Assembly (NCBI RefSeq): GCF_000497125.1
Contig: NC_090604.1
Coordinates: 206,651 to 270,650, forward strand
DNA: 64,000 nucleotides
Direction: 5' to 3'
From: Spironucleus salmonicida
Taxonomy: Eukaryota
Below the pieces are notes generated by a model, which was not told where the DNA came from, did not search any database, and worked only from the letters and a program-made list of their open reading frames with translations. This document shows, in pieces, positions 1 through 39,112 of the stretch. Each line of letters opens with the position of its first letter. The first letter of the stretch is position 1. A program made the translations under genes and the position numbers.

Positions 1-29
1 CCGAGGCGGGCGGTGCGCGAGAAAGATAA

Positions 30-146
30 AATTCGGCACAGCTCTTTCCCTCGTAGTCTCCCAGCGAAGTACTCAATACTGCAGGTCAGGCTTCACTTCA
101 CAATTTGGAACAAGATGTGGTGTTTAACTGACTGTATGACCGAATC
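30..146 (-). rRNA. 5S: 5S rRNA (1-nt deletion versus other copies)
   Basis: Same sequence as the array 5S copies, lacking one base in tactgccagg. Confidence 0.8.
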
Positions 147-238
147 GAGAGTACTGGGGCGTGGCGCGGACCCGGGCGCTGGGCGGGTGCTGGAAGCGGG
201 CCGCCCATCCCGAGGCGGGCGGTGCGCGAGAAAGATAA

Positions 239-347
239 AATTCGGCACAGCTGTAGTCTCCCAGCGAAGTACTCAATACTGCCAGGTCAGGCTTCACTTC
301 ACAATTTGGAACAAGATGTGGTGTTTAACTGACTGTATGACCGAATC
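239..347 (-). rRNA. 5S: 5S rRNA copy with 9-nt deletion (pseudogene or consensus error)
   Basis: Lacks ctttccctc relative to the other copies. Confidence 0.7.
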
Positions 348-778
348 GAGAGTACTGGGACGGCCGGAAAGAAGGGGCGCCTCGCGCTGTTACTTTGCGA
401 CGCTCCCGTGAGGCGCTAGCTCGAAGTGGGCCACGAGATGCTTCAGCTACCGCCCTGGGAAGCCAAGGTGAAAGTGCGTGGCTAAAGGTTGGGACGTACC
501 AAGCCACTACGAAGTGGGAGTGAGACAGCATACTTAGGGGAGGCGCTGTGAAGGCAGATGACGGAGAAGTGACGGCTGCCCTTTCTAGCGTTTGGTTAGC
601 TTGGGTGCATAGCCTCTGCTGGTAGATTTTGTTATAGGTGCAGTTAGTAAAAGCTAATGCTAGGGCTAGGCAATTAATAGAATAAATACTGCCGAAACGT
701 ATAAATAAATCATTAGCATAGCTTATCAGCCAGCTAGAGTGGAGGGACGTGAGGGCGCTATAAATCAAGTAGGGTCAC

Positions 779-2000
779 TCAGATCTCATTCCTCTGCACG
801 AGGGGGAGCTCGGTGTGCATTCTCTGCTTCCTGCTGCGCACGGCGAAGGCCACGACACCGATGACCGCGGTCAGGGCGACGACACCGCCGAGGACGGCAC
901 CGATGGTGGCGGCCTGGGAGGCTCTGTTGGCGGGCGCGACGCACTGGTGGCCTGGAAGAGGTAGCCGGGTCTGCACGCGGCGCAGTAGCGCTCGTCGCAG
1001 GACAGGCACCCCTCGGGGCAGGCGGCGCACTGGCCGGTGGTGGTCTGGCGGAAGCCGACCTCGCACTCGTTGCAGGAGTCGCCGCTCTGGACCTTGCAGT
1101 TGGCGATGCCGCCGGGGACGACTGGTGGAGGCGTGGGAGGGTTCACCGAGCCGCAGGAGCTGGCGTCGGCACAGACCCCGGCTGGGGTGAGGTAGAAGCC
1201 GAGCCCGCAACCGAGGCACTCGGAGGTGCTGCAGATGGCGCAGCCTCGGCGCAGGGGACGCAGAGCCCGTTGGTGAGGGCGTGACCGGGGTGGCACACGA
1301 GGCAGCCGTCGGCGCCCTCGATCTGACAGGAGTTGGGCTTGGGCACGCATACGTTGTCCTGGACGGCGAGGCCTTCCTTGCACACGACGCACTTTTCTTC
1401 GTACTGGAAGTCGCAGTTGGCGACGGCGGCGAAGCAGTTGCCGCCTGCTGACGAAGCCTGGGATGCAAGTGGTGCAGCCGGAGGCATCGGAGGATGCGCA
1501 GAGGGAAGGGTTGGTGACGCAGGTGTTGTTCATGACGGCGAAGCCCTCGCGGCAGTTGACACACTTCTCCTCGTACTGGAAGTCGCAGTTCTTCACGCCG
1601 GCGAAGCAGTTGCCGTTGGTGTTGGAGTAGCCAGGCTTGCAGCTGATGCAGCCCTCGGGGTGTTGGTCTCGCAGAAGGCGGGGTTGGTGACGCACTTGTT
1701 GCCGGCGTTGGCCATGCCGTCCTTGCACACGACGCACTTCTCCTCGTACTGGAACTCGCAGTTGGCGACAGCCGCGAAGCAGTTGCCGTCCTGTTCGACG
1801 TGGCCGGGCTTGCAGGTGGCGCAGCCGTCGATGCCCTGAACGGAGCAGAGGGCGGGGTTGGTGACGCACTTGTTGTCGGCGACGGCGAAGCCCTCGCGGC
1901 AGTTGACGCAGGTGGCCTCGTACTGGAACTCGCAGTTCTTGATGTTGGGGATGCAGGTGTTGTTCTCACGGTGGGTGTTGGTCGGGCAGGTCGCGCTCAT
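779..2000 (-). pseudogene. CRMP array copy 1, frameshifted by five 1-nt deletions (probably sequencing error)
   Basis: 1222 bp versus 1227 bp for intact copies; deletions fall in G/C runs. Confidence 0.75.
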
Positions 2001-2186
2001 TGGTAGTGGAGTGGGCGGGTCGGATCGGGGGTATAATACGGTATTAGGCCGATAATCTATTTCGGGCCGAGTTAGAATAGGTGGAGCGGAGTTGGATTGC
2101 CTTGGGTATCCGCGCCATCGTGCAGAATACCCGGCCGGGTGGAAGGGCGGACCCATCCCGAGGCGGGCGGTGCGCGAGAAAGATAA

Positions 2187-2304
2187 AATTCGGCACAGCT
2201 CTTTCCCTCGTAGTCTCCCAGCGAAGTACTCAATACTGCCAGGTCAGGCTTCACTTCACAATTTGGAACAAGATGTGGTGTTTAACTGACTGTATGACCG
2301 AATC
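2187..2304 (-). rRNA. 5S: 5S rRNA
   Basis: Minus strand reads GATTCGGTCATACAGTCAGTTAAACACCACATCTTGTTCCAAATTGTGAAGTGAAGCCTGACCTGGCAGTATTGAGTACTTCGCTGGGAGACTACGAGGGAAAGAGCTGTGCCGAATT (118 nt). It has the eukaryotic 5S hallmarks CGG(T/C)CATAC, GAAG..AAGC (box A) and AGTACTT...TGGGAGAC....GGGAA (box C), a terminal stem GATTCGGT/GCCGAATT and a T4 terminator. Confidence 0.92.
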
Positions 2305-2736
2305 GAGAGTACTGGGACGGCCGGAAAGAAGGGGCGCCTCGCGCTGTTACTTTGCGACGCTTCCCGTGAGGCGCTAGCTCGAAGTGGGCCACGAGATGCT
2401 TCAGCTACCGCCCTGGGAAGCCAAGGTGAAAGTGCGTGGCTAAAGTTTGGGACGTACCAAGCCACTACGAAGTGGGAGTGAGACAGCATACTTAGGGGAG
2501 GCGCTGTGAAGGCAGATGACGGAGAAGTGACGGCTGCCCTTTCTAGCGTTTGGTTAGCTTCGGTGCATAGCCTCTGCTGGCAGATTTTGTTATAGGTGCA
2601 GTTAGTAAAAGCTAATGCTAGGGCTAGGCAATTAATAGAATAAATACTGCCGAAACGTATAAATAAATCATTAGCATAGCTTATCAGCCAGCTAGAGTGG
2701 AGGGACGTGAGGGCGCTATAAATCAAGTAGGGTCAC

Positions 2737-3962
2737 TCAGATCTCATTCCTCTGCACGAGGGGGAGCTCGGTGTGCATTCTCTGCTTCCTGCTGCGCACG
2801 GCGAAGGCCACGACACCGATGACCGCGGTCAGGGCGACGACACCGCCGAGGACGGCACCGATGGTGGCGGCCTGGGAGGCTCTGTTGGCGGGCGCGACGC
2901 ACTGGTGGGCCTGGAAGAGGTAGCCGGGTCTGCACGCGGCGCAGTAGCGCTCGTCGCAGGACAGGCACCCCTCGGGGCAGGCGGCGCACTGGCCGGTGGT
3001 GGTCTGGCGGAAGCCGACCTCGCACTCGCTGCAGGAGTCGCCGCTCTGGACCTTGCAGTTGGCGATGCCGCCGGGGACGACTGGTGGAGGCGTGGGAGGG
3101 TTCACCGAGCCGCAGGAGCTGGCGTCGGCACAGACCCCGGCTGGGGTGAGGTAGAAGCCGAGCCCGCAACCGAGGCACTCGGAGTGCTGCAGATGGCGCA
3201 GCCCTCGGCGCAGGGGACGCAGAGCCCGTTGGTGAGGGCGTGACCGGGGTGGCACACGAGGCAGCCGTCGGCGCCCTCGATCTGGCAGGAGTTGGGCTTG
3301 GGCACGCATACGTTGTCCTGGACGGCGAGGCCTTCCTTGCACACGACGCACTTTTCTTCGTACTGGAAGTCGCAGTTGGCGACGGCGGCGAAGCAGTTGC
3401 CGCCCTGCTGGACGAAGCCTGGGATGCAAGTGGTGCAGCCGGAGGCATCGGAGGATGCGCAGAGGGAAGGGTTGGTGACGCAGGTGTTGTTCATGACGGC
3501 GAAGCCCTCGCGGCAGTTGACACACTTCTCCTCGTACTGGAAGTCGCAGTTCTTCACGCCGGCGAAGCAGTTGCCGTTGGTGTTGGAGTAGCCAGGCTTG
3601 CAGCTGATGCAGCCCTCGGGGGTGTTGGTCTCGCAGAAGGCGGGGTTGGTGACGCACTTGTTGCCGGCGTTGGCCATGCCGTCCTTGCACACGACGCACT
3701 TCTCCTCGTACTGGAACTCGCAGTTGGCGACAGCCGCGAAGCAGTTGCCGTCCTGTTCGACGTGGCCGGGCTTGCAGGTGGCGCAGCCGTCGATGCCCTG
3801 AACGGAGCAGAGGGCGGGGTTGGTGACGCACTTGTTGTCGGCGACGGCGAAGCCCTCGCGGCAGTTGACGCAGGTGGCCTCGTACTGGAACTCGCAGTTC
3901 TTGATGTTGGGGATGCAGGTGTTGTTCTCACGGTGGGTGTTGGTCGGGCAGGTCGCGCTCAT
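2737..3962 (-). pseudogene. CRMP array copy 2, one 1-nt deletion frameshift near 3184 (probably sequencing error)
   Basis: ggagtgctg versus ggaggtgctg in intact copies; 1226 bp. Confidence 0.75.
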
Positions 3963-4148
3963 TGGTAGTGGAGTGGGCGGGTCGGATCGGGGGTATAATA
4001 CGGTATTAGGCCGATAATCTATTTCGGGCCGAGTTAGAATAGGTGGAGCGGAGTTGGATTGCCTTGGGTATCCGCGCCATCGTGCAGAATACCCGGCCGG
4101 GTGGAAGGGCGGACCCATCCCGAGGCGGGCGGTGCGCGAGAAAGATAA

Positions 4149-4266
4149 AATTCGGCACAGCTCTTTCCCTCGTAGTCTCCCAGCGAAGTACTCAATACTG
4201 CCAGGTCAGGCTTCACTTCACAATTTGGAACAAGATGTGGTGTTTAACTGACTGTATGACCGAATC
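4149..4266 (-). rRNA. 5S: 5S rRNA
   Basis: Identical to 2187..2304. Confidence 0.92.
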
Positions 4267-4698
4267 GAGAGTACTGGGACGGCCGGAAAGAAGGGGCGCC
4301 TCGCGCTGTTACTTTGCGACGCTTCCCGTGAGGCGCTAGCTCGAAGTGGGCCACGAGATGCTTCAGCTACCGCCCTGGGAAGCCAAGGTGAAAGTGCGTG
4401 GCTAAAGTTTGGGACGTACCAAGCCACTACGAAGTGGGAGTGAGACAGCATACTTAGGGGAGGCGCTGTGAAGGCAGATGACGGAGAAGTGACGGCTGCC
4501 CTTTCTAGCGTTTGGTTAGCTTGGGTGCATAGCCTCTGCTGGTAGATTTTGTTATAGGTGCAGTTAGTAAAAGCTAATGCTAGGGCTAGGCAATTAATAG
4601 AATAAATACTGCCGAAACGTATAAATAAATCATTAGCATAGCTTATCAGCCAGCTAGAGTGGAGGGACGTGAGGGCGCTATAAATCAAGTAGGGTCAC

Positions 4699-5925
4699 TC
4701 AGATCTCATTCCTCTGCACGAGGGGGAGCTCGGTGTGCATTCTCTGCTTCCTGCTGCGCACGGCGAAGGCCACGACACCGATGACCGCGGTCAGGGCGAC
4801 GACACCGCCGAGGACGGCACCGATGGTGGCGGCCTGGGAGGCTCTGTTGGCGGGCGCGACGCACTGGTGGGCCTGGAAGAGGTAGCCGGGTCTGCACGCG
4901 GCGCAGTAGCGCTCGTCGCAGGACAGGCACCCCTCGGGGCAGGCGGCGCACTGGCCGGTGGTGGTCTGGCGGAAGCCGACCTCGCACTCGCTGCAGGAGT
5001 CGCCGCTCTGGACCTTGCAGTTGGCGATGCCGCCGGGGACGACTGGTGGAGGCGTGGGAGGGTTCACCGAGCCGCAGGAGCTGGCGTCGGCACAGACCCC
5101 GGCTGGGGTGAGGTAGAAGCCGAGCCCGCAACCGAGGCACTCGGAGGTGCTGCAGATGGCGCAGCCCTCGGCGCAGGGGACGCAGAGCCCGTTGGTGAGG
5201 GCGTGACCGGGGTGGCACACGAGGCAGCCGTCGGCGCCCTCGATCTGGCAGGAGTTGGGCTTGGGCACGCATACGTTGTCCTGGACGGCGAGGCCTTCCT
5301 TGCACACGACGCACTTTTCTTCGTACTGGAAGTCGCAGTTGGCGACGGCGGCGAAGCAGTTGCCGCCCTGCTGGACGAAGCCTGGGATGCAAGTGGTGCA
5401 GCCGGAGGCATCGGAGGATGCGCAGAGGGAAGGGTTGGTGACGCAGGTGTTGTTCATGACGGCGAAGCCCTCGCGGCAGTTGACACACTTCTCCTCGTAC
5501 TGGTAGTCGCAGTTCTTCACGCCGGCGTAGCAGTTGCCGTTGGTGTTGGAGTAGCCAGGCTTGCAGCTGATGCAGCCCTCGGGGGTGTTGGTCTCGCAGA
5601 AGGCGGGGTTGGTGACGCACTTGTTGCCGGCGTTGGCCATGCCGTCCTTGCACACGACGCACTTCTCCTCGTACTGGAACTCGCAGTTGGCGACAGCCGC
5701 GAAGCAGTTGCCGTCCTGTTCGACGTGGCCGGGCTTGCAGGTGGCGCAGCCGTCGATGCCCTGAACGGAGCAGAGGGCGGGGTTGGTGACGCACTTGTTG
5801 TCGGCGACGGCGAAGCCCTCGCGGCAGTTGATGCAGGTGGCCTCGTACTGGAACGCGCAGTTCTTGATGTTGGGGATGCAGGTGTTGTTCTCACGGTGGG
5901 TGTTGGTCGGGCAGGTCGCGCTCAT
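4699..5925 (-). CDS. Cysteine-rich membrane protein (CRMP/VSP-like), 408 aa, array copy 3
   Basis: MSATCPTN... has four 58-aa CXXC repeats, a C-terminal TM (IGAVLGGVVALTAVIGVVAFAV) and a basic tail RSRKQR...NEI. C-rich tract before the ATG; TGAGTGA at the stop. Confidence 0.92.
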   Translation of the reverse strand: MSATCPTNTHRENNTCIPNIKNCAFQYEATCINCREGFAVADNKCVTNPALCSVQGIDGCATCKPGHVEQDGNCFAAVANCEFQYEEKCVVCKDGMANAGNKCVTNPAFCETNTPEGCISCKPGYSNTNGNCYAGVKNCDYQYEEKCVNCREGFAVMNNTCVTNPSLCASSDASGCTTCIPGFVQQGGNCFAAVANCDFQYEEKCVVCKEGLAVQDNVCVPKPNSCQIEGADGCLVCHPGHALTNGLCVPCAEGCAICSTSECLGCGLGFYLTPAGVCADASSCGSVNPPTPPPVVPGGIANCKVQSGDSCSECEVGFRQTTTGQCAACPEGCLSCDERYCAACRPGYLFQAHQCVAPANRASQAATIGAVLGGVVALTAVIGVVAFAVRSRKQRMHTELPLVQRNEI

Positions 5926-5965
5926 TGGTAGTGGAGTGGGCGGGTCGGATCGGGGGTATAATACG
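5926..5965 (-). promoter_or_regulatory. C-rich upstream motif preceded by TATTATA (present in every array unit)
   Basis: Minus strand ccgtattatacccccgatccgacccgcccactccactaccaATG resembles the C-rich promoter motif described for Spironucleus. Confidence 0.5.
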
Positions 5966-6111
5966 GTATTAGGCCGATAATCTATTTCGGGCCGAGTTAG
6001 AATAGGTGGAGCGGAGTTGGATTGCCTTGGGTATCCGCGCCATCGTGCAGAATACCCGGCCGGGTGGAAGGGCGGACCCATCCCGAGGCGGGCGGTGCGC
6101 GAGAAAGATAA

Positions 6112-6229
6112 AATTCGGCACAGCTCTTTCCCTCGTAGTCTCCCAGCGAAGTACTCAATACTGCCAGGTCAGGCTTCACTTCACAATTTGGAACAAGATG
6201 TGGTGTTTAACTGACTGTATGACCGAATC
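6112..6229 (-). rRNA. 5S: 5S rRNA
   Basis: Identical array copy. Confidence 0.92.
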
Positions 6230-6661
6230 GAGAGTACTGGGACGGCCGGAAAGAAGGGGCGCCTCGCGCTGTTACTTTGCGACGCTTCCCGTGAGGCGCT
6301 AGCTCGAAGTGGGCCACGAGATGCTTCAGCTACCGCCCTGGGAAGCCAAGGTGAAAGTGCGTGGCTAAAGTTTGGGACGTACCAAGCCACTACGAAGTGG
6401 GAGTGAGACAGCATACTTAGGGGAGGCGCTGTGAAGGCAGATGACGGAGAAGTGACGGCTGCCCTTTCTAGCGTTTGGTTAGCTTGGGTGCATAGCCTCT
6501 GCTGGTAGATTTTGTTATAGGTGCAGTTAGTAAAAGCTAATGCTAGGGCTAGGCAATTAATAGAATAAATACTGCCGAAACGTATAAATAAATCATTAGC
6601 ATAGCTTATCAGCCAGCTAGAGTGGAGGGACGTGAGGGCGCTATAAATCAAGTAGGGTCAC

Positions 6662-7888
6662 TCAGATCTCATTCCTCTGCACGAGGGGGAGCTCGGTGTG
6701 CATTCTCTGCTTCCTGCTGCGCACGGCGAAGGCCACGACACCGATGACCGCGGTCAGGGCGACGACACCGCCGAGGACGGCACCGATGGTGGCGGCCTGG
6801 GAGGCTCTGTTGGCGGGCGCGACGCACTGGTGGGCCTGGAAGAGGTAGCCGGGTCTGCACGCGGCGCAGTAGCGCTCGTCGCAGGACAGGCACCCCTCGG
6901 GGCAGGCGGCGCACTGGCCGGTGGTGGTCTGGCGGAAGCCGACCTCGCACTCGCTGCAGGAGTCGCCGCTCTGGACCTTGCAGTTGGCGATGCCGCCGGG
7001 GACGACTGGTGGAGGCGTGGGAGGGTTCACCGAGCCGCAGGAGCTGGCGTCGGCACAGACCCCGGCTGGGGTGAGGTAGAAGCCGAGCCCGCAACCGAGG
7101 CACTCGGAGGTGCTGCAGATGGCGCAGCCCTCGGCGCAGGGGACGCAGAGCCCGTTGGTGAGGGCGTGACCGGGGTGGCACACGAGGCAGCCGTCGGCGC
7201 CCTCGATCTGGCAGGAGTTGGGCTTGGGCACGCATACGTTGTCCTGGACGGCGAGGCCTTCCTTGCACACGACGCACTTTTCTTCGTACTGGAAGTCGCA
7301 GTTGGCGACGGCGGCGAAGCAGTTGCCGCCCTGCTGGACGAAGCCTGGGATGCAAGTGGTGCAGCCGGAGGCATCGGAGGATGCGCAGAGGGAAGGGTTG
7401 GTGACGCAGGTGTTGTTCATGACGGCGAAGCCCTCGCGGCAGTTGACACACTTCTCCTCGTACTGGTAGTCGCAGTTCTTCACGCCGGCGTAGCAGTTGC
7501 CGTTGGTGTTGGAGTAGCCAGGCTTGCAGCTGATGCAGCCCTCGGGGGTGTTGGTCTCGCAGAAGGCGGGGTTGGTGACGCACTTGTTGCCGGCGTTGGC
7601 CATGCCGTCCTTGCACACGACGCACTTCTCCTCGTACTGGAACTCGCAGTTGGCGACAGCCGCGAAGCAGTTGCCGTCCTGTTCGACGTGGCCGGGCTTG
7701 CAGGTGGCGCAGCCGTCGATGCCCTGAACGGAGCAGAGGGCGGGGTTGGTGACGCACTTGTTGTCGGCGACGGCGAAGCCCTCGCGGCAGTTGATGCAGG
7801 TGGCCTCGTACTGGAACTCGCAGTTCTTGATGTTGGGGATGCAGGTGTTGTTCTCGCGGTGGGTGTTGGTCGGGCAGGTCGCGCTCAT
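6662..7888 (-). CDS. CRMP array copy 4 (408 aa)
   Basis: Intact near-identical copy. Confidence 0.92.
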   Translation of the reverse strand: MSATCPTNTHRENNTCIPNIKNCEFQYEATCINCREGFAVADNKCVTNPALCSVQGIDGCATCKPGHVEQDGNCFAAVANCEFQYEEKCVVCKDGMANAGNKCVTNPAFCETNTPEGCISCKPGYSNTNGNCYAGVKNCDYQYEEKCVNCREGFAVMNNTCVTNPSLCASSDASGCTTCIPGFVQQGGNCFAAVANCDFQYEEKCVVCKEGLAVQDNVCVPKPNSCQIEGADGCLVCHPGHALTNGLCVPCAEGCAICSTSECLGCGLGFYLTPAGVCADASSCGSVNPPTPPPVVPGGIANCKVQSGDSCSECEVGFRQTTTGQCAACPEGCLSCDERYCAACRPGYLFQAHQCVAPANRASQAATIGAVLGGVVALTAVIGVVAFAVRSRKQRMHTELPLVQRNEI

Positions 7889-8074
7889 TGGTAGTGGAGT
7901 GGGCGGGTCGGATCGGGGGTATAATACGGTATTAGGCCGATAATCTATTTCGGGCCGAGTTAGAATAGGTGGAGCGGAGTTGGATTGCCTTGGGTATCCG
8001 CGCCATCGTGCAGAATACCCGGCCGGGTGGAAGGGCGGACCCATCCCGAGGCGGGCGGTGCGCGAGAAAGATAA

Positions 8075-8192
8075 AATTCGGCACAGCTCTTTCCCTCGTA
8101 GTCTCCCAGCGAAGTACTCAATACTGCCAGGTCAGGCTTCACTTCACAATTTGGAACAAGATGTGGTGTTTAACTGACTGTATGACCGAATC
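8075..8192 (-). rRNA. 5S: 5S rRNA (doublet, CRMP-proximal)
   Basis: Identical array copy. Confidence 0.92.
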
Positions 8193-8287
8193 GAGAGTAC
8201 TGGGGCGTGGCCGCGGACCCGGGCGCTGGGCGGGTGCTGGGAAGCGGGCCCGCCCATCCCGAGGCGGGCGGTGCGCGAGAAAGATAA

Positions 8288-8405
8288 AATTCGGCACAGC
8301 TCTTTCCCTCGTAGTCTCCCAGCGAAGTACTCAATACTGCCAGGTCAGGCTTCACTTCACAATTTGGAACAAGATGTGGTGTTTAACTGACTGTATGACC
8401 GAATC
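8288..8405 (-). rRNA. 5S: 5S rRNA (doublet, second copy, 213 bp away)
   Basis: Identical array copy. Confidence 0.92.
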
Positions 8406-30305: not shown

Positions 30306-30423
30306 AATTCGGCACAGCTCTTTCCCTCGTAGTCTCCCAGCGAAGTACTCAATACTGCCAGGTCAGGCTTCACTTCACAATTTGGAACAAGATGTGGTGT
30401 TTAACTGACTGTATGACCGAATC
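30306..30423 (-). rRNA. 5S: 5S rRNA
   Basis: Identical array copy. Confidence 0.92.
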
Positions 30424-30855
30424 GAGAGTACTGGGACGGCCGGAAAGAAGGGGCGCCTCGCGCTGTTACTTTGCGACGCTTCCCGTGAGGCGCTAGCTCG
30501 AAGTGGGCCACGAGATGCTTCAGCTACCGCCCTGGGAAGCCAAGGTGAAAGTGCGTGGCTAAAGGTTGGGACGTACCAAGCCACTACGAAGTGGGAGTGA
30601 GACAGCATACTTAGGGGAGGCGCTGTGAAGGCAGATGACGGAGAAGTGACGGCTGCCCTTTCTAGCGTTTGGTTAGCTTGGGTGCATAGCCTCTGCTGGC
30701 AGATTTTGTTATAGGTGCAGTTAGTAAAAGCTAATGCTAGGGCTAGGCAATTAATAGAATAAATACTGCCGAAACGTATAAATAAATCATTAGCATAGCT
30801 TATCAGCCAGCTAGAGTGGAGGGACGTGAGGGCGCTATAAATCAAGTAGGGTCAC

Positions 30856-32082: not shown

Positions 32083-32268
32083 TGGTAGTGGAGTGGGCGG
32101 GTCGGATCGGGGGTATAATACGGTATTAGGCCGATAATCTATTTCGGGCCGAGTTAGAATAGGTGGAGCGGAGTTGGATTGCCTTGGGTATCCGCGCCAT
32201 CGTGCAGAATACCCGGCCGGGTGGAAGGGCGGACCCATCCCGAGGCGGGCGGTGCGCGAGAAAGATAA

Positions 32269-32386
32269 AATTCGGCACAGCTCTTTCCCTCGTAGTCTCC
32301 CAGCGAAGTACTCAATACTGCCAGGTCAGGCTTCACTTCACAATTTGGAACAAGATGTGGTGTTTAACTGACTGTATGACCGAATC
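32269..32386 (-). rRNA. 5S: 5S rRNA
   Basis: Identical array copy. Confidence 0.92.
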
Positions 32387-32818
32387 GAGAGTACTGGGAC
32401 GGCCGGAAAGAAGGGGCGCCTCGCGCTGTTACTTTGCGACGCTTCCCGTGAGGCGCTAGCTCGAAGTGGGCCACGAGATGCTTCAGCTACCGCCCTGGGA
32501 AGCCAAGGTGAAAGTGCGTGGCTAAAGTTTGGGACGTACCAAGCCACTACGAAGTGGGAGTGAGACAGCATACTTAGGGGAGGCGCTGTGAAGGCAGATG
32601 ACGGAGAAGTGACGGCTGCCCTTTCTAGCGTTTGGTTAGCTTGGGTGCATAGCCTCTGCTGGTAGATTTTGTTATAGGTGCAGTTAGTAAAAGCTAATGC
32701 TAGGGCTAGGCAATTAATAGAATAAATACTGCCGAAACGTATAAATAAATCATTAGCATAGCTTATCAGCCAGCTAGAGTGGAGGGACGTGAGGGCGCTA
32801 TAAATCAAGTAGGGTCAC

Positions 32819-34045
32819 TCAGATCTCATTCCTCTGCACGAGGGGGAGCTCGGTGTGCATTCTCTGCTTCCTGCTGCGCACGGCGAAGGCCACGACACCG
32901 ATGACCGCGGTCAGGGCGACGACACCGCCGAGGACGGCACCGATGGTGGCGGCCTGGGAGGCTCTGTTGGCGGGCGCGACGCACTGGTGGGCCTGGAAGA
33001 GGTAGCCGGGTCTGCACGCGGCGCAGTAGCGCTCGTCGCAGGACAGGCACCCCTCGGGGCAGGCGGCGCACTGGCCGGTGGTGGTCTGGCGGAAGCCGAC
33101 CTCGCACTCGCTGCAGGAGTCGCCGCTCTGGACCTTGCAGTTGGCGATGCCGCCGGGGACGACTGGTGGAGGCGTGGTAGGGTTCACCGAGCCGCAGGAG
33201 CTGGCGTCGGCACAGACCCCGGCTGGGGTGAGGTAGAAGCCGAGCCCGCAACCGAGGCACTCGGAGGTGCTGCAGATGGCGCAGCCCTCGGCGCAGGGGA
33301 CGCAGAGCCCGTTGGTGAGGGCGTGACCGGGGTGGCACACGAGGCAGCCGTCGGCGCCCTCGATCTGGCAGGAGTTGGGCTTGGGCACGCATACGTTGTC
33401 CTGGACGGCGAGGCCTTCCTTGCACACGACGCACTTTTCTTCGTACTGGAAGTCGCAGTTGGCGACGGCGGCGAAGCAGTTGCCGCCCTGCTGGACGAAG
33501 CCTGGGATGCAAGTGGTGCAGCCGGAGGCATCGGAGGATGCGCAGAGGGAAGGGTTGGTGACGCAGGTGTTGTTCATGACGGCGAAGCCCTCGCGGCAGT
33601 TGACACACTTCTCCTCGTACTGGAAGTCGCAGTTCTTCACGCCGGCGAAGCAGTTGCCGTTGGTGTTGGAGTAGCCAGGCTTGCAGCTGATGCAGCCCTC
33701 GGGGGTGTTGGTCTCGCAGAAGGCGGGGTTGGTGACGCACTTGTTGCCGGCGTTGGCCATGCCGTCCTTGCACACGACGCACTTCTCCTCGTACTGGAAC
33801 TCGCAGTTGGCGACAGCCGCGAAGCAGTTGCCGTCCTGTTCGACGTGGCCGGGCTTGCAGGTGGCGCAGCCGTCGATGCCCTGAACGGAGCAGAGGGCGG
33901 GGTTGGTGACGCACTTGTTGTCGGCGACGGCGAAGCCCTCGCGGCAGTTGACGCAGGTGGCCTCGTACTGGAACTCGCAGTTCTTGATGTTGGGGATGCA
34001 GGTGTTGTTCTCGCGGTGGGTGTTGGTCGGGCAGGTCGCGCTCAT
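32819..34045 (-). CDS. CRMP array copy 17 (408 aa; private P>T change)
   Basis: Intact; reads NPTTPPP. Confidence 0.92.
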   Translation of the reverse strand: MSATCPTNTHRENNTCIPNIKNCEFQYEATCVNCREGFAVADNKCVTNPALCSVQGIDGCATCKPGHVEQDGNCFAAVANCEFQYEEKCVVCKDGMANAGNKCVTNPAFCETNTPEGCISCKPGYSNTNGNCFAGVKNCDFQYEEKCVNCREGFAVMNNTCVTNPSLCASSDASGCTTCIPGFVQQGGNCFAAVANCDFQYEEKCVVCKEGLAVQDNVCVPKPNSCQIEGADGCLVCHPGHALTNGLCVPCAEGCAICSTSECLGCGLGFYLTPAGVCADASSCGSVNPTTPPPVVPGGIANCKVQSGDSCSECEVGFRQTTTGQCAACPEGCLSCDERYCAACRPGYLFQAHQCVAPANRASQAATIGAVLGGVVALTAVIGVVAFAVRSRKQRMHTELPLVQRNEI

Positions 34046-34231
34046 TGGTAGTGGAGTGGGCGGGTCGGATCGGGGGTATAATACGGTATTAGGCCGATAA
34101 TCTATTTCGGGCCGAGTTAGAATAGGTGGAGCGGAGTTGGATTGCCTTGGGTATCCGCGCCATCGTGCAGAATACCCGGCCGGGTGGAAGGGCGGACCCA
34201 TCCCGAGGCGGGCGGTGCGCGAGAAAGATAA

Positions 34232-34349
34232 AATTCGGCACAGCTCTTTCCCTCGTAGTCTCCCAGCGAAGTACTCAATACTGCCAGGTCAGGCTTCACT
34301 TCACAATTTGGAACAAGATGTGGTGTTTAACTGACTGTATGACCGAATC
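34232..34349 (-). rRNA. 5S: 5S rRNA
   Basis: Identical array copy. Confidence 0.92.
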
Positions 34350-34781
34350 GAGAGTACTGGGACGGCCGGAAAGAAGGGGCGCCTCGCGCTGTTACTTTGC
34401 GACGCTTCCCGTGAGGCGCTAGCTCGAAGTGGGCCACGAGATGCTTCAGCTACCGCCCTGGGAAGCCAAGGTGAAAGTGCGTGGCTAAAGTTTGGGACGT
34501 ACCAAGCCACTACGAAGTGGGAGTGAGACAGCATACTTAGGGGAGGCGCTGTGAAGGCAGATGACGGAGAAGTGACGGCTGCCCTTTCTAGCGTTTGGTT
34601 AGCTTGGGTGCATAGCCTCTGCTGGTAGATTTTGTTATAGGTGCAGTTAGTAAAAGCTAATGCTAGGGCTAGGCAATTAATAGAATAAATACTGCCGAAA
34701 CGTATAAATAAATCATTAGCATAGCTTATCAGCCAGCTAGAGTGGAGGGACGTGAGGGCGCTATAAATCAAGTAGGGTCAC

Positions 34782-36008
34782 TCAGATCTCATTCCTCTGC
34801 ACGAGGGGGAGCTCGGTGTGCATTCTCTGCTTCCTGCTGCGCACGGCGAAGGCCACGACACCGATGACCGCGGTCAGGGCGACGACACCGCCGAGGACGG
34901 CACCGATGGTGGCGGCCTGGGAGGCTCTGTTGGCGGGCGCGACGCACTGGTGGGCCTGGAAGAGGTAGCCGGGTCTGCACGCGGCGCAGTAGCGCTCGTC
35001 GCAGGACAGGCACCCCTCGGGGCAGGCGGCGCACTGGCCGGTGGTGGTCTGGCGGAAGCCGACCTCGCACTCGCTGCAGGAGTCGCCGCTCTGGACCTTG
35101 CAGTTGGCGATGCCGCCGGGGACGACTGGTGGAGGCGTGGGAGGGTTCACCGAGCCGCAGGAGCTGGCGTCGGCACAGACCCCGGCTGGGGTGAGGTAGA
35201 AGCCGAGCCCGCAACCGAGGCACTCGGAGGTGCTGCAGATGGCGCAGCCCTCGGCGCAGGGGACGCAGAGCCCGTTGGTGAGGGCGTGACCGGGGTGGCA
35301 CACGAGGCAGCCGTCGGCGCCCTCGATCTGACAGGAGTTGGGCTTGGGCACGCATACGTTGTCCTGGACGGCGAGGCCTTCCTTGCACACGACGCACTTT
35401 TCTTCGTACTGGAAGTCGCAGTTGGCGACGGCGGCGAAGCAGTTGCCGCCCTGCTGGACGAAGCCTGGGATGCAAGTGGTGCAGCCGGAGGCATCGGAGG
35501 ATGCGCAGAGGGAAGGGTTGGTGACGCAGGTGTTGTTCATGACGGCGAAGCCCTCGCGGCAGTTGACACACTTCTCCTCGTACTGGAAGTCGCAGTTCTT
35601 CACGCCGGCGAAGCAGTTGCCGTTGGTGTTGGAGTAGCCAGGCTTGCAGCTGATGCAGCCCTCGGGGGTGTTGGTCTCGCAGAAGGCGGGGTTGGTGACG
35701 CACTTGTTGCCGGCGTTGGCCATGCCGTCCTTGCACACGACGCACTTCTCCTCGTACTGGAACTCGCAGTTGGCGACAGCCGCGAAGCAGTTGCCGTCCT
35801 GTTCGACGTGGCCGGGCTTGCAGGTGGCGCAGCCGTCGATGCCCTGAACGGAGCAGAGGGCGGGGTTGGTGACGCACTTGTTGTCGGCGACGGCGAAGCC
35901 CTCGCGGCAGTTGACGCAGGTGGCCTCGTACTGGAACTCGCAGTTCTTGATGTTGGGGATGCAGGTGTTGTTCTCGCGGTGGGTGTTGGTCGGGCAGGTC
36001 GCGCTCAT
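34782..36008 (-). CDS. CRMP array copy 18 (408 aa)
   Basis: Intact near-identical copy. Confidence 0.92.
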   Translation of the reverse strand: MSATCPTNTHRENNTCIPNIKNCEFQYEATCVNCREGFAVADNKCVTNPALCSVQGIDGCATCKPGHVEQDGNCFAAVANCEFQYEEKCVVCKDGMANAGNKCVTNPAFCETNTPEGCISCKPGYSNTNGNCFAGVKNCDFQYEEKCVNCREGFAVMNNTCVTNPSLCASSDASGCTTCIPGFVQQGGNCFAAVANCDFQYEEKCVVCKEGLAVQDNVCVPKPNSCQIEGADGCLVCHPGHALTNGLCVPCAEGCAICSTSECLGCGLGFYLTPAGVCADASSCGSVNPPTPPPVVPGGIANCKVQSGDSCSECEVGFRQTTTGQCAACPEGCLSCDERYCAACRPGYLFQAHQCVAPANRASQAATIGAVLGGVVALTAVIGVVAFAVRSRKQRMHTELPLVQRNEI

Positions 36009-36194
36009 TGGTAGTGGAGTGGGCGGGTCGGATCGGGGGTATAATACGGTATTAGGCCGATAATCTATTTCGGGCCGAGTTAGAATAGGTGGAGCGGAGT
36101 TGGATTGCCTTGGGTATCCGCGCCATCGTGCAGAATACCCGGCCGGGTGGAAGGGCGGACCCATCCCGAGGCGGGCGGTGCGCGAGAAAGATAA

Positions 36195-36312
36195 AATTCG
36201 GCACAGCTCTTTCCCTCGTAGTCTCCCAGCGAAGTACTCAATACTGCCAGGTCAGGCTTCACTTCACAATTTGGAACAAGATGTGGTGTTTAACTGACTG
36301 TATGACCGAATC
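36195..36312 (-). rRNA. 5S: 5S rRNA
   Basis: Identical array copy. Confidence 0.92.
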
Positions 36313-36744
36313 GAGAGTACTGGGACGGCCGGAAAGAAGGGGTGCCTCGCGCTGTTACTTTGCGACGCTTCCCGTGAGGCGCTAGCTCGAAGTGGGCCAC
36401 GAGATGCTTCAGCTACCGCCCTGGGAAGCCAAGGTGAAAGTGCGTGGCTAAAGGTTGGGACGTACCAAGCCACTACGAAGTGGGAGTGAGACAGCATACT
36501 TAGGGGAGGCGCTGTGAAGGCAGATGACGGAGAAGTGACGGCTGCCCTTTCTAGCGTTTGGTTAGCTTGGGTGCATAGCCTCTGCTGGTAGATTTTGTTA
36601 TAGGTGCAGTTAGTAAAAGCTAATGCTAGGGCTAGGCAATTAATAGAATAAATACTGCCGAAACGTATAAATAAATCATTAGCATAGCTTATCAGCCAGC
36701 TAGAGTGGAGGGACGTGAGGGCGCTATAAATCAAGTAGGGTCAC

Positions 36745-37971
36745 TCAGATCTCATTCCTCTGCACGAGGGGGAGCTCGGTGTGCATTCTCTGCTTCCTGC
36801 TGCGCACGGCGAACGCCACGACACCGATGACCGCGGTCAGGGCGACGACACCGCCGAGGACGGCACCGATGGTGGCGGCCTGGGAGGCTCTGTTGGCGGG
36901 CGCGACGCACTGGTGGGCCTGGAAGAGGTAGCCGGGTCTGCACGCGGCGCAGTAGCGCTCGTCGCAGGACAGGCACCCCTCGGGGCAGGCGGCGCACTGG
37001 CCGGTGGTGGTCTGGCGGAAGCCGACCTCGCACTCGTTGCAGGAGTCGCCGCTCTGGACCTTGCAGTTGGCGATGCCGCCGGGGACGACTGGTGGAGGCG
37101 TGGGAGGGTTCACCGAGCCGCAGGAGCTGGCGTCGGCACAGACCCCGGCTGGGGTGAGGTAGAAGCCGAGCCCGCAACCGAGGCACTCGGAGGTGCTGCA
37201 GATGGCGCAGCCCTCGGCGCAGGGGACGCAGAGCCCGTTGGTGAGGGCGTGACCGGGGTGGCACACGAGGCAGCCGTCGGCGCCCTCGATCTGACAGGAG
37301 TTGGGCTTGGGCACGCATACGTTGTCCTGGACGGCGAGGCCTTCCTTGCACACGACGCACTTTTCTTCGTACTGGAAGTCGCAGTTGGCGACGGCGGCGA
37401 AGCAGTTGCCGCCCTGCTGGACGAAGCCTGGGATGCAAGTGGTGCAGCCGGAGGCATCGGAGGATGCGCAGAGGGAAGGGTTGGTGACGCAGGTGTTGTT
37501 CATGACGGCGAAGCCCTCGCGGCAGTTGACACACTTCTCCTCGTACTGGAAGTCGCAGTTCTTCACGCCGGCGAAGCAGTTGCCGTTGGTGTTGGAGTAG
37601 CCAGGCTTGCAGCTGATGCAGCCCTCGGGGGTGTTGGTCTCGCAGAAGGCGGGGTTGGTGACGCACTTGTTGCCGGCGTTGGCCATGCCGTCCTTGCACA
37701 CGACGCACTTCTCCTCGTACTGGAACTCGCAGTTGGCGACAGCCGCGAAGCAGTTGCCGTCCTGTTCGACGTGGCCGGGCTTGCAGGTGGCGCAGCCGTC
37801 GATGCCCTGAACGGAGCAGAGGGCGGGGTTGGTGACGCACTTGTTGTCGGCGACGGCGAAGCCCTCGCGGCAGTTGACGCAGGTGGCCTCGTACTGGAAC
37901 TCGCAGTTCTTGATGTTGGGGATGCAGGTGTTGTTCTCGCGGTGGGTGTTGGTCGGGCAGGTCGCGCTCAT
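36745..37971 (-). CDS. CRMP array copy 19 (408 aa)
   Basis: Intact near-identical copy. Confidence 0.92.
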   Translation of the reverse strand: MSATCPTNTHRENNTCIPNIKNCEFQYEATCVNCREGFAVADNKCVTNPALCSVQGIDGCATCKPGHVEQDGNCFAAVANCEFQYEEKCVVCKDGMANAGNKCVTNPAFCETNTPEGCISCKPGYSNTNGNCFAGVKNCDFQYEEKCVNCREGFAVMNNTCVTNPSLCASSDASGCTTCIPGFVQQGGNCFAAVANCDFQYEEKCVVCKEGLAVQDNVCVPKPNSCQIEGADGCLVCHPGHALTNGLCVPCAEGCAICSTSECLGCGLGFYLTPAGVCADASSCGSVNPPTPPPVVPGGIANCKVQSGDSCNECEVGFRQTTTGQCAACPEGCLSCDERYCAACRPGYLFQAHQCVAPANRASQAATIGAVLGGVVALTAVIGVVAFAVRSRKQRMHTELPLVQRNEI

Positions 37972-38157
37972 TGGTAGTGGAGTGGGCGGGTCGGATCGGG
38001 GGTATAATACGGTATTAGGCCGATAATCTATTTCGGGCCGAGTTAGAATAGGTGGAGCGGAGTTGGATTGCCTTGGGTATCCGCGCCATCGTGCAGAATA
38101 CCCGGCCGGGTGGAAGGGCGGACCCATCCCGAGGCGGGCGGTGCGCGAGAAAGATAA

Positions 38158-38275
38158 AATTCGGCACAGCTCTTTCCCTCGTAGTCTCCCAGCGAAGTAC
38201 TCAATACTGCCAGGTCAGGCTTCACTTCACAATTTGGAACAAGATGTGGTGTTTAACTGACTGTATGACCGAATC
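38158..38275 (-). rRNA. 5S: 5S rRNA (terminal copy of the array)
   Basis: Identical array copy; array homology ends about 50 bp upstream of it. Confidence 0.92.
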
Positions 38276-39112
38276 GAGAGTACTGGGACGGCCGGAAAGA
38301 AGGGGCGCCTAACGCTGTTACTTTGCAATCGCTGCGCCGTTTCCAGCGGAAATTCGCTAGAACGAAAATCCGGATCGCAGGTTGCGCTTCGCGGATGGCC
38401 AATTTGTCAGTTTCTTGCGCAGAACGTGAAGCAGAAATGTGCTAATAATAAGGTGATATAACGATTGACTTTTTAGCTGATATAACGTTTACTGCGTTTT
38501 GGGTGATGACCGCATCGCACGCTGCTTAGCGCGAGGGTGAAAGCAGCATTATTCATAATATTCATATTAGTATATAATAATAACTATATATTTTTAGGGA
38601 GTAAATTGGGGTTGCGATTTTTATGTTATAATTGAGTTACGTATTCGTTACAGAATAGAAACAAAAATAATTATAATCATCATAATAATGAAATAACGTT
38701 AAAATAATATATTTTACGGTTTGTGTATTCGCATAAGTTTTTCAAATTTATCTTACTGTAAATATTGTAATAATATGGATATGCGCATAAGTATTTTTAA
38801 ATTTATTTGTAGAACATGAGAATTATTGGAAAATAATCATATATAATATATTGAAAATATTGTCAGTTTTTATCCATTGATATATTGTTAATATATTCAT
38901 GGTTTCATTTTAATTAAATCTTTTTCGTAATAATTAGTTGTATATATGGTTAACATGAAGGTATAAGAAAACGTATTTGCCATACTTATAATTTGAGAAT
39001 GGTATTTTTGGGTTTATTTAGTACGAGTTATATTTTTAAGTAAGAAATTAGACGATGCAAAGATAAATATTTCATATTAATAATTAAAGTATGTAAAGGA
39101 AATTATTTCAAA

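Follow-up and report, generated by a model that had tools for sequence, protein, structure and literature searches.

A cysteine-rich membrane-protein gene within the tandem 5S rRNA repeat of Spironucleus salmonicida: a probable passenger of the array, seemingly transcribed mainly at the array edge

Almost every repeat of the 5S rRNA gene array of S. salmonicida was found to hold a complete gene for a cysteine-rich membrane protein (CRMP), which is an unusual passenger of a 5S array. Our preferred reading, to which we give a probability of about 0.6, is that this gene resides in the spacer of the 5S repeat, with which it was amplified and is passively homogenized, and that the RNA produced from the array comes mainly from the copy at its boundary.

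The window (the whole 64 000 nt stretch of DNA that was analysed) carries on its minus strand, from position 1 to 38 326, a tandem array of 19 full units of 1963 bp and several 5S-only mini-units (Table 1). When a reference unit (4268–6230) was compared with the window by blast, 19 full-length 1963 bp copies were recovered between 349 and 38 276, all on the minus strand and all with 99.34–100 % identity to it, as had been proposed from the sequence. The left side of the array is cut by the window, whilst its right end, at 38 326, is 50 nt upstream from the final 5S gene. The GC content was 55–67 % in the array and 26–53 % in the flank; duplicated parts of the genome of S. salmonicida are reported to be GC-richer in general (44.7 versus 30.7 %; PMC9509377). 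According to the chromosome-scale genome paper, there are 40 5S copies in tandem, all of them placed in one array, a 64 kb repeat with a 2 kb period on chromosome 9, and 59 CRMP1 and 41 CRMP2 genes on that chromosome (PMC9509377). The first 38.3 kb of the window very probably represents the right-hand part of this published 5S array and 64 kb repeat. With 40 copies reported (PMC9509377) and 24 seen here, about 16 more 5S copies lie beyond the window.

Table 1. Positions of the array units and associated features in the window
Feature	Position	Strand	Evidence or remarks
Full units 1–6	349–2305, 2306–4267, 4268–6230, 6231–8193, 8407–10369, 10370–12332	(-)	blast
Full units 7–12	12333–14295, 14509–16471, 16685–18647, 18648–20610, 20611–22573, 22574–24535	(-)	blast
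Full units 13–19	24536–26498, 26499–28461, 28462–30424, 30425–32387, 32388–34350, 34351–36313, 36314–38276	(-)	blast
5S-only mini-units, three, identical	8194–8406, 14296–14508, 16472–16684	(-)	213 bp: 5S plus 92 nt spacer
Degenerate 5S-only mini-units, two	within 1–348	(-)	homopolymer deletions in both 5S copies
5S rRNA gene, reference unit	6110–6230	(-)	RF00001, 66.8 bits, model positions 1–120; 121 nt including TTTT terminator
Upstream in-frame ATG	6079–6081	(-)	would lengthen the ORF to 460 aa
Linker, 5S to CDS	5926–6109	(-)	promoter-like region; GC 0.598
CDS, putative CRMP-2-class cysteine-rich single-pass membrane protein	4699–5925	(-)	408 codons, stop within coordinates; in every long unit
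Candidate poly(A) signal AGTGA	4695–4699	(-)	overlaps TGA stop, context TGAGTGA
Spacer, stop codon to next 5S gene	4268–4698	(-)	431 bp, GC 0.515, no recognized gene
Boundary unit 19, repeat end and flank	36314–38349	(-)	repeat end 38277–38326 (50 nt); unique flank 38327–38349 (23 nt)
Stray fragment of array CDS	55713–55985	(-)	273 bp, 97 % identical to 4797–5072, 17 kb from array

The 5S genes are genuine. Rfam model RF00001 gave 24 matches, without exception on the minus strand and within 28–38 276, of which 22 scored 66.8 bits (E = 7.1e-12), one 70.4 and one 47.5, against a gathering cut-off of 38 bits; 22 of the 24 genes were identical 121 nt sequences with a terminal TTTT. The minimum free energy fold had the three-arm shape, with a z-score (−0.42) that was not significant. 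The spacer of unit 19 (36 314–36 744) had no match at E ≤ 1 in an Rfam scan of 36 314–39 000. One-to-one pairing of 5S and CRMP genes had been claimed; this is correct for the 19 full units and incorrect for the array as a whole, where 24 5S genes stand against 19 ORF-bearing units, the excess being five interspersed 5S-only mini-units with a length of 213 bp or approximately 209 bp. Mini-units and long units shared an identical stretch of 33 nt directly following the 5S gene and another of 11 nt directly preceding it, and the remainder of the short spacer was diverged, yet alignable to the terminal parts of the long unit; at the place of the 92 nt spacer the long units have a gene-bearing segment of approximately 1.75 kb. 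The 213 bp units could equally be deletion derivatives of long units. Deletions in homopolymers, of the kind that long-read consensus errors typically produce, were present in both 5S copies at 1–348.

The expectation that the CRMP gene shares the repeat unit and the homogenization of the 5S gene was borne out. Only 13 variable sites were found among the 17 intact units, four of them in the 431 bp spacer that follows the stop codon, and none in the 305 positions of the 5S gene and linker in units 3–19, a deficit that was not significant (Fisher, P = 0.24). Adjacent intact units differed at a mean of 2.9 sites, compared with 6.1 for units at least eight apart, and similarity fell with distance (Spearman r = 0.625, with none of 2000 permutations as high).

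In each full unit the ORF is co-oriented with the 5S gene and can be read as 460 aa from the first ATG (e.g. 4699–6081) or as 408 aa from the ATG at 5925. The latter lies 184 nt past the T-run of the 5S gene, or 187 nt, as predicted, if the 5S gene is taken as 118 nt. The CDS was intact in 17 of the 19 units and broken in units 1 and 2 (349–4267); since all eight single-base gaps in units 1, 2 and 12 fall within runs of two to five identical bases, they may be long-read consensus errors. Differences between units comprised six nonsynonymous and three synonymous changes, which neither support nor exclude constraint, and no cysteine was altered by any of the six amino-acid differences. The GC contents at the three codon positions were 0.545, 0.523 and 0.924, and all 18 glutamine codons were CAG.

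Promoter-like and poly(A)-like elements were present in all units. Promoters of S. salmonicida genes are described as having a TATA element at −60 to −20 and a C-rich motif around −10, and the poly(A) signal as AGTGA, with polyadenylation approximately 14 bp downstream (PMC3916229). In the linker, 20 of the 30 positions from −60 to −31 were A or T, including TATTATA, and 18 of the 30 from −30 to −1 were C; this layout appears to match the described architecture, the C-rich part by composition and not by the published 11 nt logo. The upstream ATG is probably not the normal start. Its counterpart in the boundary unit (38 127) is the first ATG downstream of 38 420 on the minus strand. The other CRMPs in the window start M-x(3–6)-C, like the 408 aa form, and the CRMP family lacks detectable signal peptides (PMC3916229), so that the shorter start fits the family.

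The 408 aa protein contains 51 cysteines (12.5 %) and 15 CXXC motifs, and its residues 365–389 form a hydrophobic stretch. The AlphaFold model (mean pLDDT 83.5) shows a β-hairpin rod followed by a helix at 364–396, suggesting a product composed of a disulfide-rich β-hairpin repeat rod, a Pro-rich hinge, a single transmembrane helix and a 19-residue tail. hmmer found 284 relatives at E ≤ 1e-3; in an alignment with 40 relatives, 29 of the 51 cysteines fell in conserved columns (10 invariant and 19 at least 90 % conserved). The best non-self relatives were 24–34 % identical, with no close paralogue, and the neighbouring CRMPs were indeed as diverse as had been stated, with 24–31 % identity to the array protein. 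The protein had also been called a VSP-like surface antigen, which was not upheld. No Pfam VSP match was obtained even at E ≤ 10, when a neighbouring 976 aa CRMP scored 36.9 bits, and the [KR][KR]X[KR][KR] motif of CRMP-1 was missing; a CRGKA motif was likewise absent when the protein was read directly. An older-assembly protein record, a frameshifted copy of the array ORF, is named CRMP-2, and the sequence features of the array protein fit that class better than VSPs or CRMP-1.

Contigs covering 4690–6230 were available from four runs of one study (X1–X4), unstranded and of no usable depth, whose type, RNA, was only guessed. At site 4768 both covering runs had C, which occurs in one of the 17 intact units, and at site 4991 all three covering runs had T, which occurs in six of the 17. 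The eight-site contig haplotype, CTAAACTG, was that of unit 19 and of no other intact unit of the 17. The X2 and X3 contigs extend from the ORF across the 5S gene and the 50 nt upstream of it, reach 23 letters exactly matching the unique flank, and bear both upstream substitutions of unit 19. The X1 contig ends at 4690, 9 nt beyond the stop codon and beside AGTGA, and an X3 contig leaves the array ORF at 4797 and continues with the letters of 55 683–55 712. Within the same tandem unit the X1 depths were 950–1698 for 5S-only contigs and 60 for the ORF contig, and at 6115 and 6215 Illumina adapter letters adjoined the 5S pieces. The runs are probably RNA, on the indirect grounds of this gap in depth, the adapters at the 5S gene and the minority C at 4768, an allele that would not prevail in DNA. 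The CRMP gene therefore seems to be transcribed mainly from the array-edge copy, unit 19; some RNA would come from other units too, as the X4 contigs break at 4991 and 5195. Units beyond the window could share the haplotype of unit 19.

High dosage had been expected of the hitchhiking gene. Because the contigs carry the boundary-unit haplotype and run into unique flank, DNA dosage is apparently not RNA dosage. S. salmonicida genes with high expression are reported to have a GC3s of about 0.4, and high-GC3 genes to make up a class with weak expression located in GC-rich regions (PMC1805757); with a GC3 of 0.92, the array gene does not have the codon usage described for strongly expressed genes.

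Under the preferred reading, the 1963 bp repeat would consist of a normal Pol III-type 5S gene ending in a T4 terminator and, downstream, a Pol II-type CRMP gene, the assignment of the polymerases being ours. The CRMP gene would have joined the 5S repeat unit, the presumed direction of capture, and would then have shared in its amplification. The processes that homogenize the 5S genes, local unequal exchange and gene conversion, would hold the CRMP gene near-identical by hitchhiking, as had been proposed. The high GC3 may stem from GC-biased conversion in a recombining array and not from codon selection for expression. Interior copies would be relatively silent, so that approximately 30 DNA copies would exist without proportional RNA. 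Because the repeat has its outer junction 50 nt upstream of the 5S gene, the first duplication may have copied a pre-existing single 5S–CRMP pair. Selection for the gene would fit as well, since each unit retains an intact ORF together with promoter-like and poly(A)-like signals for it.

Selection for dosage is the strongest of the rival explanations, although we regard it as unlikely. The array would be kept long for an abundant membrane protein, and every copy would fire from a TATA/C-rich promoter of its own, with the 5S gene as co-amplified partner or equal beneficiary. Each unit has AGTGA and a promoter-like region of a type linked to highly expressed genes, the C-rich motif being reported in 71 of 82 ribosomal protein genes (PMC3916229), but the match to that motif in the linker is compositional. 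The ORF is intact in all units except two that may reflect consensus errors, is covered by contigs in all four runs and keeps its cysteines; against this stands the contig haplotype, which is that of a single intact unit and includes, at 4768, an allele in the minority in the DNA. Somewhat less probable still is that the gene is a dead passenger, transcribed incidentally by read-through from the flank or the 5S gene and giving no functional protein. Contigs from all four runs enter the ORF from inside or upstream of the 5S gene and not from the promoter-like region of the ORF, and a transcript from the flank would reach the ATG of the 460 aa form first, adding a Pro/Arg-rich extension of 52 residues. 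The 6 : 3 ratio of nonsynonymous to synonymous changes is compatible with neutrality, and GC-rich DNA read under code 6 gives long ORFs in other frames too (e.g. 445 aa at 6669–8006). Such a loss of function is, however, difficult to reconcile with the strong codon-position signal in frame, the cysteines conserved among the 40 relatives, the confident AlphaFold model and the frame kept open in 17 units; moreover, the X1 contig stops where an mRNA 3′ end would.

Regulatory coupling, in which the Pol III 5S units would activate, insulate or silence the adjacent Pol II gene, by the originally proposed analogy with the RUF6 elements of Plasmodium, is improbable. It would account for the common orientation, the fixed 184 nt spacing and the invariant 5S gene and linker in 17 units, although that low variation was not significant, and the apparent dominance of the edge copy would fit silencing of the interior by dense Pol III chromatin. 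The review passages on this point go no further than allowing that protist rDNAs can be linked among themselves or with other genes (PMC6562748; PMC10161547). Both cite Drouin and Tsang, whose title, ‘a case of nonadaptive evolution’, bears on the cause of such linkage. A mis-assembly of repeats, producing the array length or the interleaving of 5S and CRMP genes, is highly improbable. Units 1 and 2 and the two 5S copies at 1–348 do show homopolymer deletions of the long-read kind, but the independent short-read contigs of X2 and X3 each unite 5S gene, linker and ORF and connect them to unique flank, the older-assembly record copies the same ORF, and the unit variants are ordered and distance-dependent. 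PacBio coverage over the repeat is also reported to be in line with that of its neighbours, with support from an optical map (PMC9509377).

The linkage had been thought undescribed. The 5S array and the 64 kb repeat are published, whereas the text on the array in PMC9509377 makes no mention of a CRMP gene per repeat, of 213 bp units or of an expressed copy, so that the claim stands, as regards that text, for the gene within the unit. A period of approximately 2 kb, a higher GC content of duplicated regions and many CRMPs on chromosome 9 are all reported by Xu et al. 2022, where the 5S array, the 64 kb repeat and the CRMP counts are handled separately (PMC9509377). That paper also describes a tandem array of histone H4 genes interspersed with reverse transcriptase genes on chromosome 3 (PMC9509377). 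Both are composite tandem arrays; the H4 array has other partners and no Pol III gene.

CRMPs are described as combining an ectodomain rich in CXXC with a single C-terminal transmembrane helix and a short basic tail, and as lacking a recognizable signal peptide (PMC3916229). Amongst CRMP-1, CRMP-2 and the VSPs and HCMPs of Giardia, the array protein shares this layout but is set apart by having no [KR][KR]X[KR][KR], CRGKA or Pfam VSP match, and its gene is homogenized in about 30 copies, not diversified. Elsewhere, 5S genes are linked to L-type rDNA units and to histone, SL RNA and snRNA repeats, as in the SL RNA–5S–U2 unit of Diplonema papillatum. The S. salmonicida array resembles these in combining the 5S gene and an unrelated gene in one tandem unit that is homogenized jointly, but its partner is a Pol II CRMP gene, not a high-demand RNA or histone gene, and one without an independent tandem family, and a minority of the units are gene-free. 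Pol III-transcribed RUF6 elements adjoin the var genes of Plasmodium, and there too a Pol III unit stands beside a surface-protein-type gene; in S. salmonicida, unlike in that system, an essential rRNA gene makes up the Pol III unit, and the neighbouring gene is homogenized, not variant.

The tandem array at window positions 1–38326 contained 19 full-length copies of its 1963-bp unit, all on the minus strand between 349 and 38276 and 99.34–100 % identical (blast of the reference unit, 4268–6230, against the window); the left side of the array is cut by the window edge and all counts apply to the part within the window. Screening against Rfam returned 24 matches to the 5S rRNA model RF00001, every one on the minus strand and over model positions 1–120, with scores of 66.8 bits (E 7.1e-12) in 22 of the 24, 70.4 bits in one and 47.5 bits in one. 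All exceeded the gathering cut-off of 38 bits, which confirms the original prediction that these are genuine 5S genes. Twenty-two copies were identical, 121 nt long and closed by TTTT at the 3′ end. In the reference unit this Pol III-type terminator lies at 6110–6113, directly at the 5S 3′ end, and the only other T4 run on the sense strand of the unit is at 4572, 127 nt past the stop codon of the protein-coding gene. The minimum-energy fold of the 5S sequence had the usual three-arm shape, with an energy no better than that of shuffled sequences (z = −0.42).

All 19 full units held both the 5S gene and an ORF bearing the CDS of a cysteine-rich membrane protein (CRMP). The proposed one-to-one pairing of 5S and protein gene was thus found within full units but not across the array, where 24 5S genes accompany 19 ORF-bearing units and five units are 5S-only. 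Distances from one 5S gene to the next were 1962–1963, 213 or 209 bp, apart from a single step of 1948 bp across unit 1, which has homopolymer deletions. The ORF lies on the same strand as the 5S gene and encodes 460 aa from its first ATG or 408 aa from the ATG at 5925; it is present in each full unit, as had been claimed, but is interrupted in units 1 and 2. The predicted 187-nt gap between 5S gene and ATG holds with a 118-nt 5S gene, and is 184 nt when counted from the T-run. The array ends on the right at 38326, 50 nt upstream of the last 5S gene, and is followed by unrelated AT-rich DNA.

Components of the reference unit and 5S-only units of the array (window positions)
Feature	Position	Strand	Length	GC
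5S gene	6230..6110	minus	121 nt	0.46
Linker	6109..5926	minus	184 nt	0.60
CDS	5925..4699	minus	1227 nt	0.66
Spacer	4698..4268	minus	431 nt	0.52
5S-only units, identical	8194-8406, 14296-14508, 16472-16684	minus	213 bp
Two degenerate 5S-only units	1-348	minus

Units 1, 2 and 12 had eight single-base gaps, all of them contractions of runs of 2–5 identical bases, and in the variant 5S copy at 28–147 a GG was contracted to G; consensus errors of long-read sequencing may be the cause. The 5S copy at 237–348 carried a 9-nt deletion that is not of the homopolymer type. Positions 1–348 and 349–4267 may be a patch of low-quality consensus and not units that have really decayed. Unit 19 (36314–38276, the last full unit beside the unique right flank) and the flank itself were scanned against Rfam at a permissive threshold; no RNA gene other than 5S was detected, and a hidden snRNA or SL RNA partner was rejected on this basis. 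A 27-nt stretch of the 5S gene had no match in metagenomes.

The 30 nt at −60 to −31 from the ATG at 5925 were A/T at 20 positions and included TATTATA, whilst the 30 nt at −30 to −1 were C at 18 positions. In S. salmonicida, genes have been described with a TATA motif between −60 and −20 and, near −10, a C-rich one that is commoner in highly expressed genes (PMC3916229), and the layout of the linker, compared by composition, would fit this promoter-like arrangement. The stop codon stands in the context TGAGTGA, which includes the AGTGA motif tied to polyadenylation about 14 bp downstream in this species (PMC3916229). The upstream ATG of the 460-aa form was judged less likely to be the real start, the 52 extra open codons being unremarkable because TGA is the only stop codon. 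Origin of the gene by retroposition of an mRNA was rejected, as the unit has upstream promoter-like sequence and no A-tract after the poly(A) site. A second ORF of 445 aa (6669..8006, with equivalents in many units) was found on the minus strand in another frame under code 6; its translation is Ala/Pro/Arg-rich, like the out-of-frame part of an older, frameshifted protein record of the array gene, and GC-rich DNA in which only TGA is a stop best accounts for it.

The 408-aa protein is a cysteine-rich single-pass membrane protein of the CRMP-2 class. It has 51 Cys residues (12.5 %), 15 CXXC and no CXC motifs, and four clear 58-residue repeats that correspond to the 174-bp periodicity detected by TRF; these are followed by a Pro-rich hinge, a second small Cys-rich module, a hydrophobic stretch at 365–389 that is the predicted C-terminal transmembrane segment (helix 364–396 in the structural model) and a 19-residue basic tail, RSRKQRMHTELPLVQRNEI. 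A regular-expression search of the protein found no [KR][KR]X[KR][KR], the motif that marks CRMP-1 (PMC3916229). CRMP-2 proteins are defined by at least three CXXC/CXC motifs, a C-terminal transmembrane domain and the absence of [KR][KR]X[KR][KR] (PMC3916229); all three hold for the array protein, which, lacking that motif, is therefore CRMP-2 by the published definition. It had neither the C-terminal [KR][KR]X[KR][KR] or CRGKA nor the PF03302 domain by which CRMP-1 and Giardia VSPs are recognized. No Pfam family matched it at E ≤ 0.1 or even at E ≤ 10, whereas a neighbouring CRMP of 976 aa scored 36.9 bits on PF03302 (VSP; cut-off 31.4), and the initial description of the array gene as a ‘VSP-like surface antigen’ is accordingly not supported. 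Only three CRMP-1 proteins have been localized, and the product of the array gene is not among them (PMC3916229). No signal peptide is detectable in the CRMP family as a whole (PMC3916229), so that its absence here is no argument against the gene; other CRMPs in the window start M-x(3-6)-C, like the 408-aa form.

Only one database protein, a 357-aa S. salmonicida record named ‘Cysteine-rich membrane protein 2, partial’, was more than 50 % identical to the array ORF, and it is a frameshifted copy of that ORF; a word-indexed protein search likewise retrieved this record alone. None of the six forms of the protein had an exact match in the protein collection. A full HMMER search returned 284 relatives at E ≤ 1e-3, the best non-self relatives being about 30–34 % identical large Cys-rich proteins, including a Tetrahymena ‘surface protein’; the neighbouring CRMPs in the window were 24–31 % identical. 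A sequence search of PDB gave no matches. The AlphaFold model, a confident one (39 relatives, mean pLDDT 83.5), predicted a rod of beta-hairpins, and a fold search with it against PDB gave weak local likeness to EGF/furin-like repeats (best E 1.8e-4, TM 0.1–0.4). The dN/dS values between the four internal 58-aa repeats (0.8–2.3) are uninformative because GC3 has converged. In metagenomes, 38 pattern matches to the CRMP protein were found, of which none was confirmed.

The array is GC-rich (55–67 %, against 26–53 % in the flank), in a genome with a GC content of 33.5 % (PMC9509377). Values of GC1, GC2 and GC3 in the CDS were 0.545, 0.523 and 0.924, and all 18 Gln codons were CAG; the flanking ORFs stay open only if TAA and TAG are read as Gln, as in the diplomonad code. 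In a 2007 survey, highly expressed S. salmonicida genes had a GC3s of about 0.4 and mostly U-ending preferred codons, and genes of high GC3 were a class apart, weakly expressed and found only in GC-rich regions (PMC1805757). A GC3 of 0.92 is at odds with codon usage linked to expression, and GC is also raised in the non-coding parts of the unit; the composition is therefore ascribed to a process acting on the whole region, the most plausible being GC-biased gene conversion as the array recombines.

The 17 intact units differed at 13 sites, four in the spacer, nine in the CDS and none in the linker and 5S gene (305 nt together), although with 17 units this lack of variation was not significant (p = 0.24). 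Three of the nine CDS differences were synonymous and six were conservative amino-acid changes, none affecting a cysteine; the sample is too small for the 6 : 3 split to show constraint. Nearby units were more alike, with a mean of 2.9 differing sites between adjacent units and 6.1 between units at least eight apart (Spearman r 0.625, reached by 0 of 2000 permutations), the pattern expected of local unequal exchange or conversion. The 213-bp units share with the long units an identical 5S gene, 33 nt after it and 11 nt before it. The remaining part of their 92-nt spacer, though diverged, aligns with both ends of the non-5S part of the long unit, and a gene segment of about 1.75 kb therefore occupies the place of a minimal 5S spacer. 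Insertion into a short unit and deletion giving rise to the short units fit equally. The position of the outer junction (50 nt upstream of the first 5S gene) would also fit an initial duplication in which the two genes were already together.

Four sequencing runs of one study, kept as contigs (X1–X4), contained array sequence. X1 contigs covered 4690–6160 of the reference unit, X2 contigs 4724–6230 plus the next 50 nt, X3 contigs 4797–6230 plus 50 nt, and X4 contigs 4992–5194 and 5199–6144; the spacer at 4318–4690 was without a contig in all four runs and was not counted as evidence. Separate short 5S contigs reached depths of 950–1698 in X1 and 1241 in X4, compared with 60 and 37 for the respective ORF contigs, and Illumina adapter letters adjoined 5S pieces at positions 6115 and 6215. 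Contig depths are not a reliable measure, but near-equal depth would be expected of DNA within one tandem unit, and the runs were therefore taken, by inference, to be RNA. The X1 contig ended 9 nt past the stop codon, beside AGTGA, which fits the 3′ end of a sense mRNA and not the next Pol III terminator a further 127 nt away.

Compared with the reference unit, the contigs differed at eight sites. Their haplotype, CTAAACTG, is that of unit 19 and of no other of the 17 intact units, although units around the some 16 further 5S copies outside the window might have the same alleles. At site 4768, C was present in both covering runs and in one of 17 units; at 4991, T was present in three of three runs and in six of 17 units. 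X2 and X3 also carried the two substitutions of unit 19 upstream of the 5S gene and ran on into 23 letters identical to 38327–38349 in the unique flank, with the proviso that a contig spanning two genes does not prove a single transcript. The breaks in the X4 contigs at 4991 and 5195 indicate that some RNA comes from other units. Within these limits, the contigs are explained most simply if the edge copy is the main source of the steady-state RNA and part of the transcription begins in the flank and crosses the first 5S gene. A transcript of that kind would have the ATG of the 460-aa form as its first.

The X2 and X3 contigs stop (38349) in an AT-rich region between the array and a CRMP-type ORF of 467 aa (38999..40402, plus strand), which lies some 670 bp beyond the array boundary in divergent orientation and has a tail of KRKKK followed by 30 more residues. 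At 55713–55985 (minus strand), 17 kb from the array, lies a fragment of the array CDS (273 bp, 97 % identical to 4797–5072). This fragment faces the 3′ end of a CRMP1-like ORF (54817..55638, plus strand) that is truncated where the fragment starts, and it may have been left by ectopic recombination between the array and a CRMP gene nearby. An X3 contig passes from the array ORF at 4797 directly into sequence that matches 55683–55712 exactly, so that this region is also represented in that run. An inverted repeat (54547–55719 and 62828–64000, 1173 nt, 96 % complementary, 7.1 kb between the arms) carries one CRMP1-type gene in each arm, namely the truncated copy and a complete one (62639..63730) ending in KKARK. 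The gene for the 976-aa CRMP (46844..49774, minus strand) contains a 405-bp tandem repeat (48174–49030, 2.1 copies, 77 % matches). A second Pol III gene, tRNA-Ser (anticodon AGA; 58733–58816, minus strand), is located nearby among the CRMP genes.

These observations are best accounted for by a CRMP-2 gene that, whilst still transcribable, would hitchhike passively in the 5S array and yield RNA mainly from its edge copy, a reading as a whole given a probability of about 0.58. Selection for dosage of the array protein is a good deal less probable. Somewhat more doubtful is a reading in which the array is a silent, homogenized store whose edge forms a single active ‘expression site’. Pol II would then transcribe only the CRMP copy beside the unique flank, from a start some 73 nt ahead of the first 5S gene, which would put a whole 5S sequence in the leader, and dense Pol III/5S chromatin would hold off the interior copies. 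Unequal exchange would decide which variant occupies the active edge, and the array might seed fragments into neighbouring CRMP genes, the patch at 55713–55985 being an example.

About as doubtful is a dead passenger, the ORF being transcribed incidentally only. Regulatory coupling between the Pol III units and the array gene is improbable. An artefact of assembly is very improbable indeed, as the distance-dependent similarity of the units speaks against a collapsed or invented array.

The array itself is already public, and its gene is named CRMP-2 in the older record. All 40 5S copies of the genome have been placed in this array, and a 64-kb tandem repeat on chromosome 9, derived from a 33-kb self-match offset by 2 kb, has been reported with PacBio coverage in line with its neighbours (PMC9509377). 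The same source counted 59 CRMP1 and 41 CRMP2 genes on chromosome 9 and found duplicated regions to be GC-richer (44.7 % versus 30.7 %); its passages on the 5S array, the repeat and the CRMP counts do not connect them or mention a CRMP gene inside each repeat. No description of linkage between 5S and CRMP genes, or between 5S and surface-protein genes, was found in the literature, and the explicit co-array, its two unit types and the edge-copy signal appear to be undescribed.

Known cases have 5S genes as passengers within the repeats of other high-copy genes, for RNAs or histones. The present case is the reverse, an ordinary Pol II membrane-protein gene riding in the apparently sole 5S array of a parasite, in some 30 near-identical copies, while its relatives next door diversify. 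The locus offers a natural test of whether such linkages are neutral accidents of concerted evolution, of how far GC-biased conversion reshapes a coding sequence (GC3 0.92) and of whether Pol II genes between active Pol III genes are expressed or silenced by position. Of the CRMP genes listed for chromosome 9, some 30 are probably copies of the array gene alone, which CRMP family counts and multi-mapping RNA-seq estimates in S. salmonicida have to take into account.

Linked 5S arrays are well known, as in the L-type units of rDNA, histone repeats and SL RNA or snRNA repeats. The 5S arrangements of protists have reportedly been called non-adaptive in a review. Protist rDNAs may be linked to other genes (PMC6562748), and Diplonema has an SL RNA–5S–U2 repeat unit (PMC10161547). 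Among diplomonads, 10 internal 5S genes are given for Giardia WB (Giardia WB genome paper), and the available text of the Hexamita inflata genome paper contains nothing on 5S genes. As in the linked arrays, the 5S gene and its partner form one tandem repeat unit in S. salmonicida. The partner there is a tandem multigene family (rDNA, histones, SL RNA or snRNA), which is not so here because the array gene has no close relative outside the array; it is instead a single divergent member of a dispersed, diversifying family.
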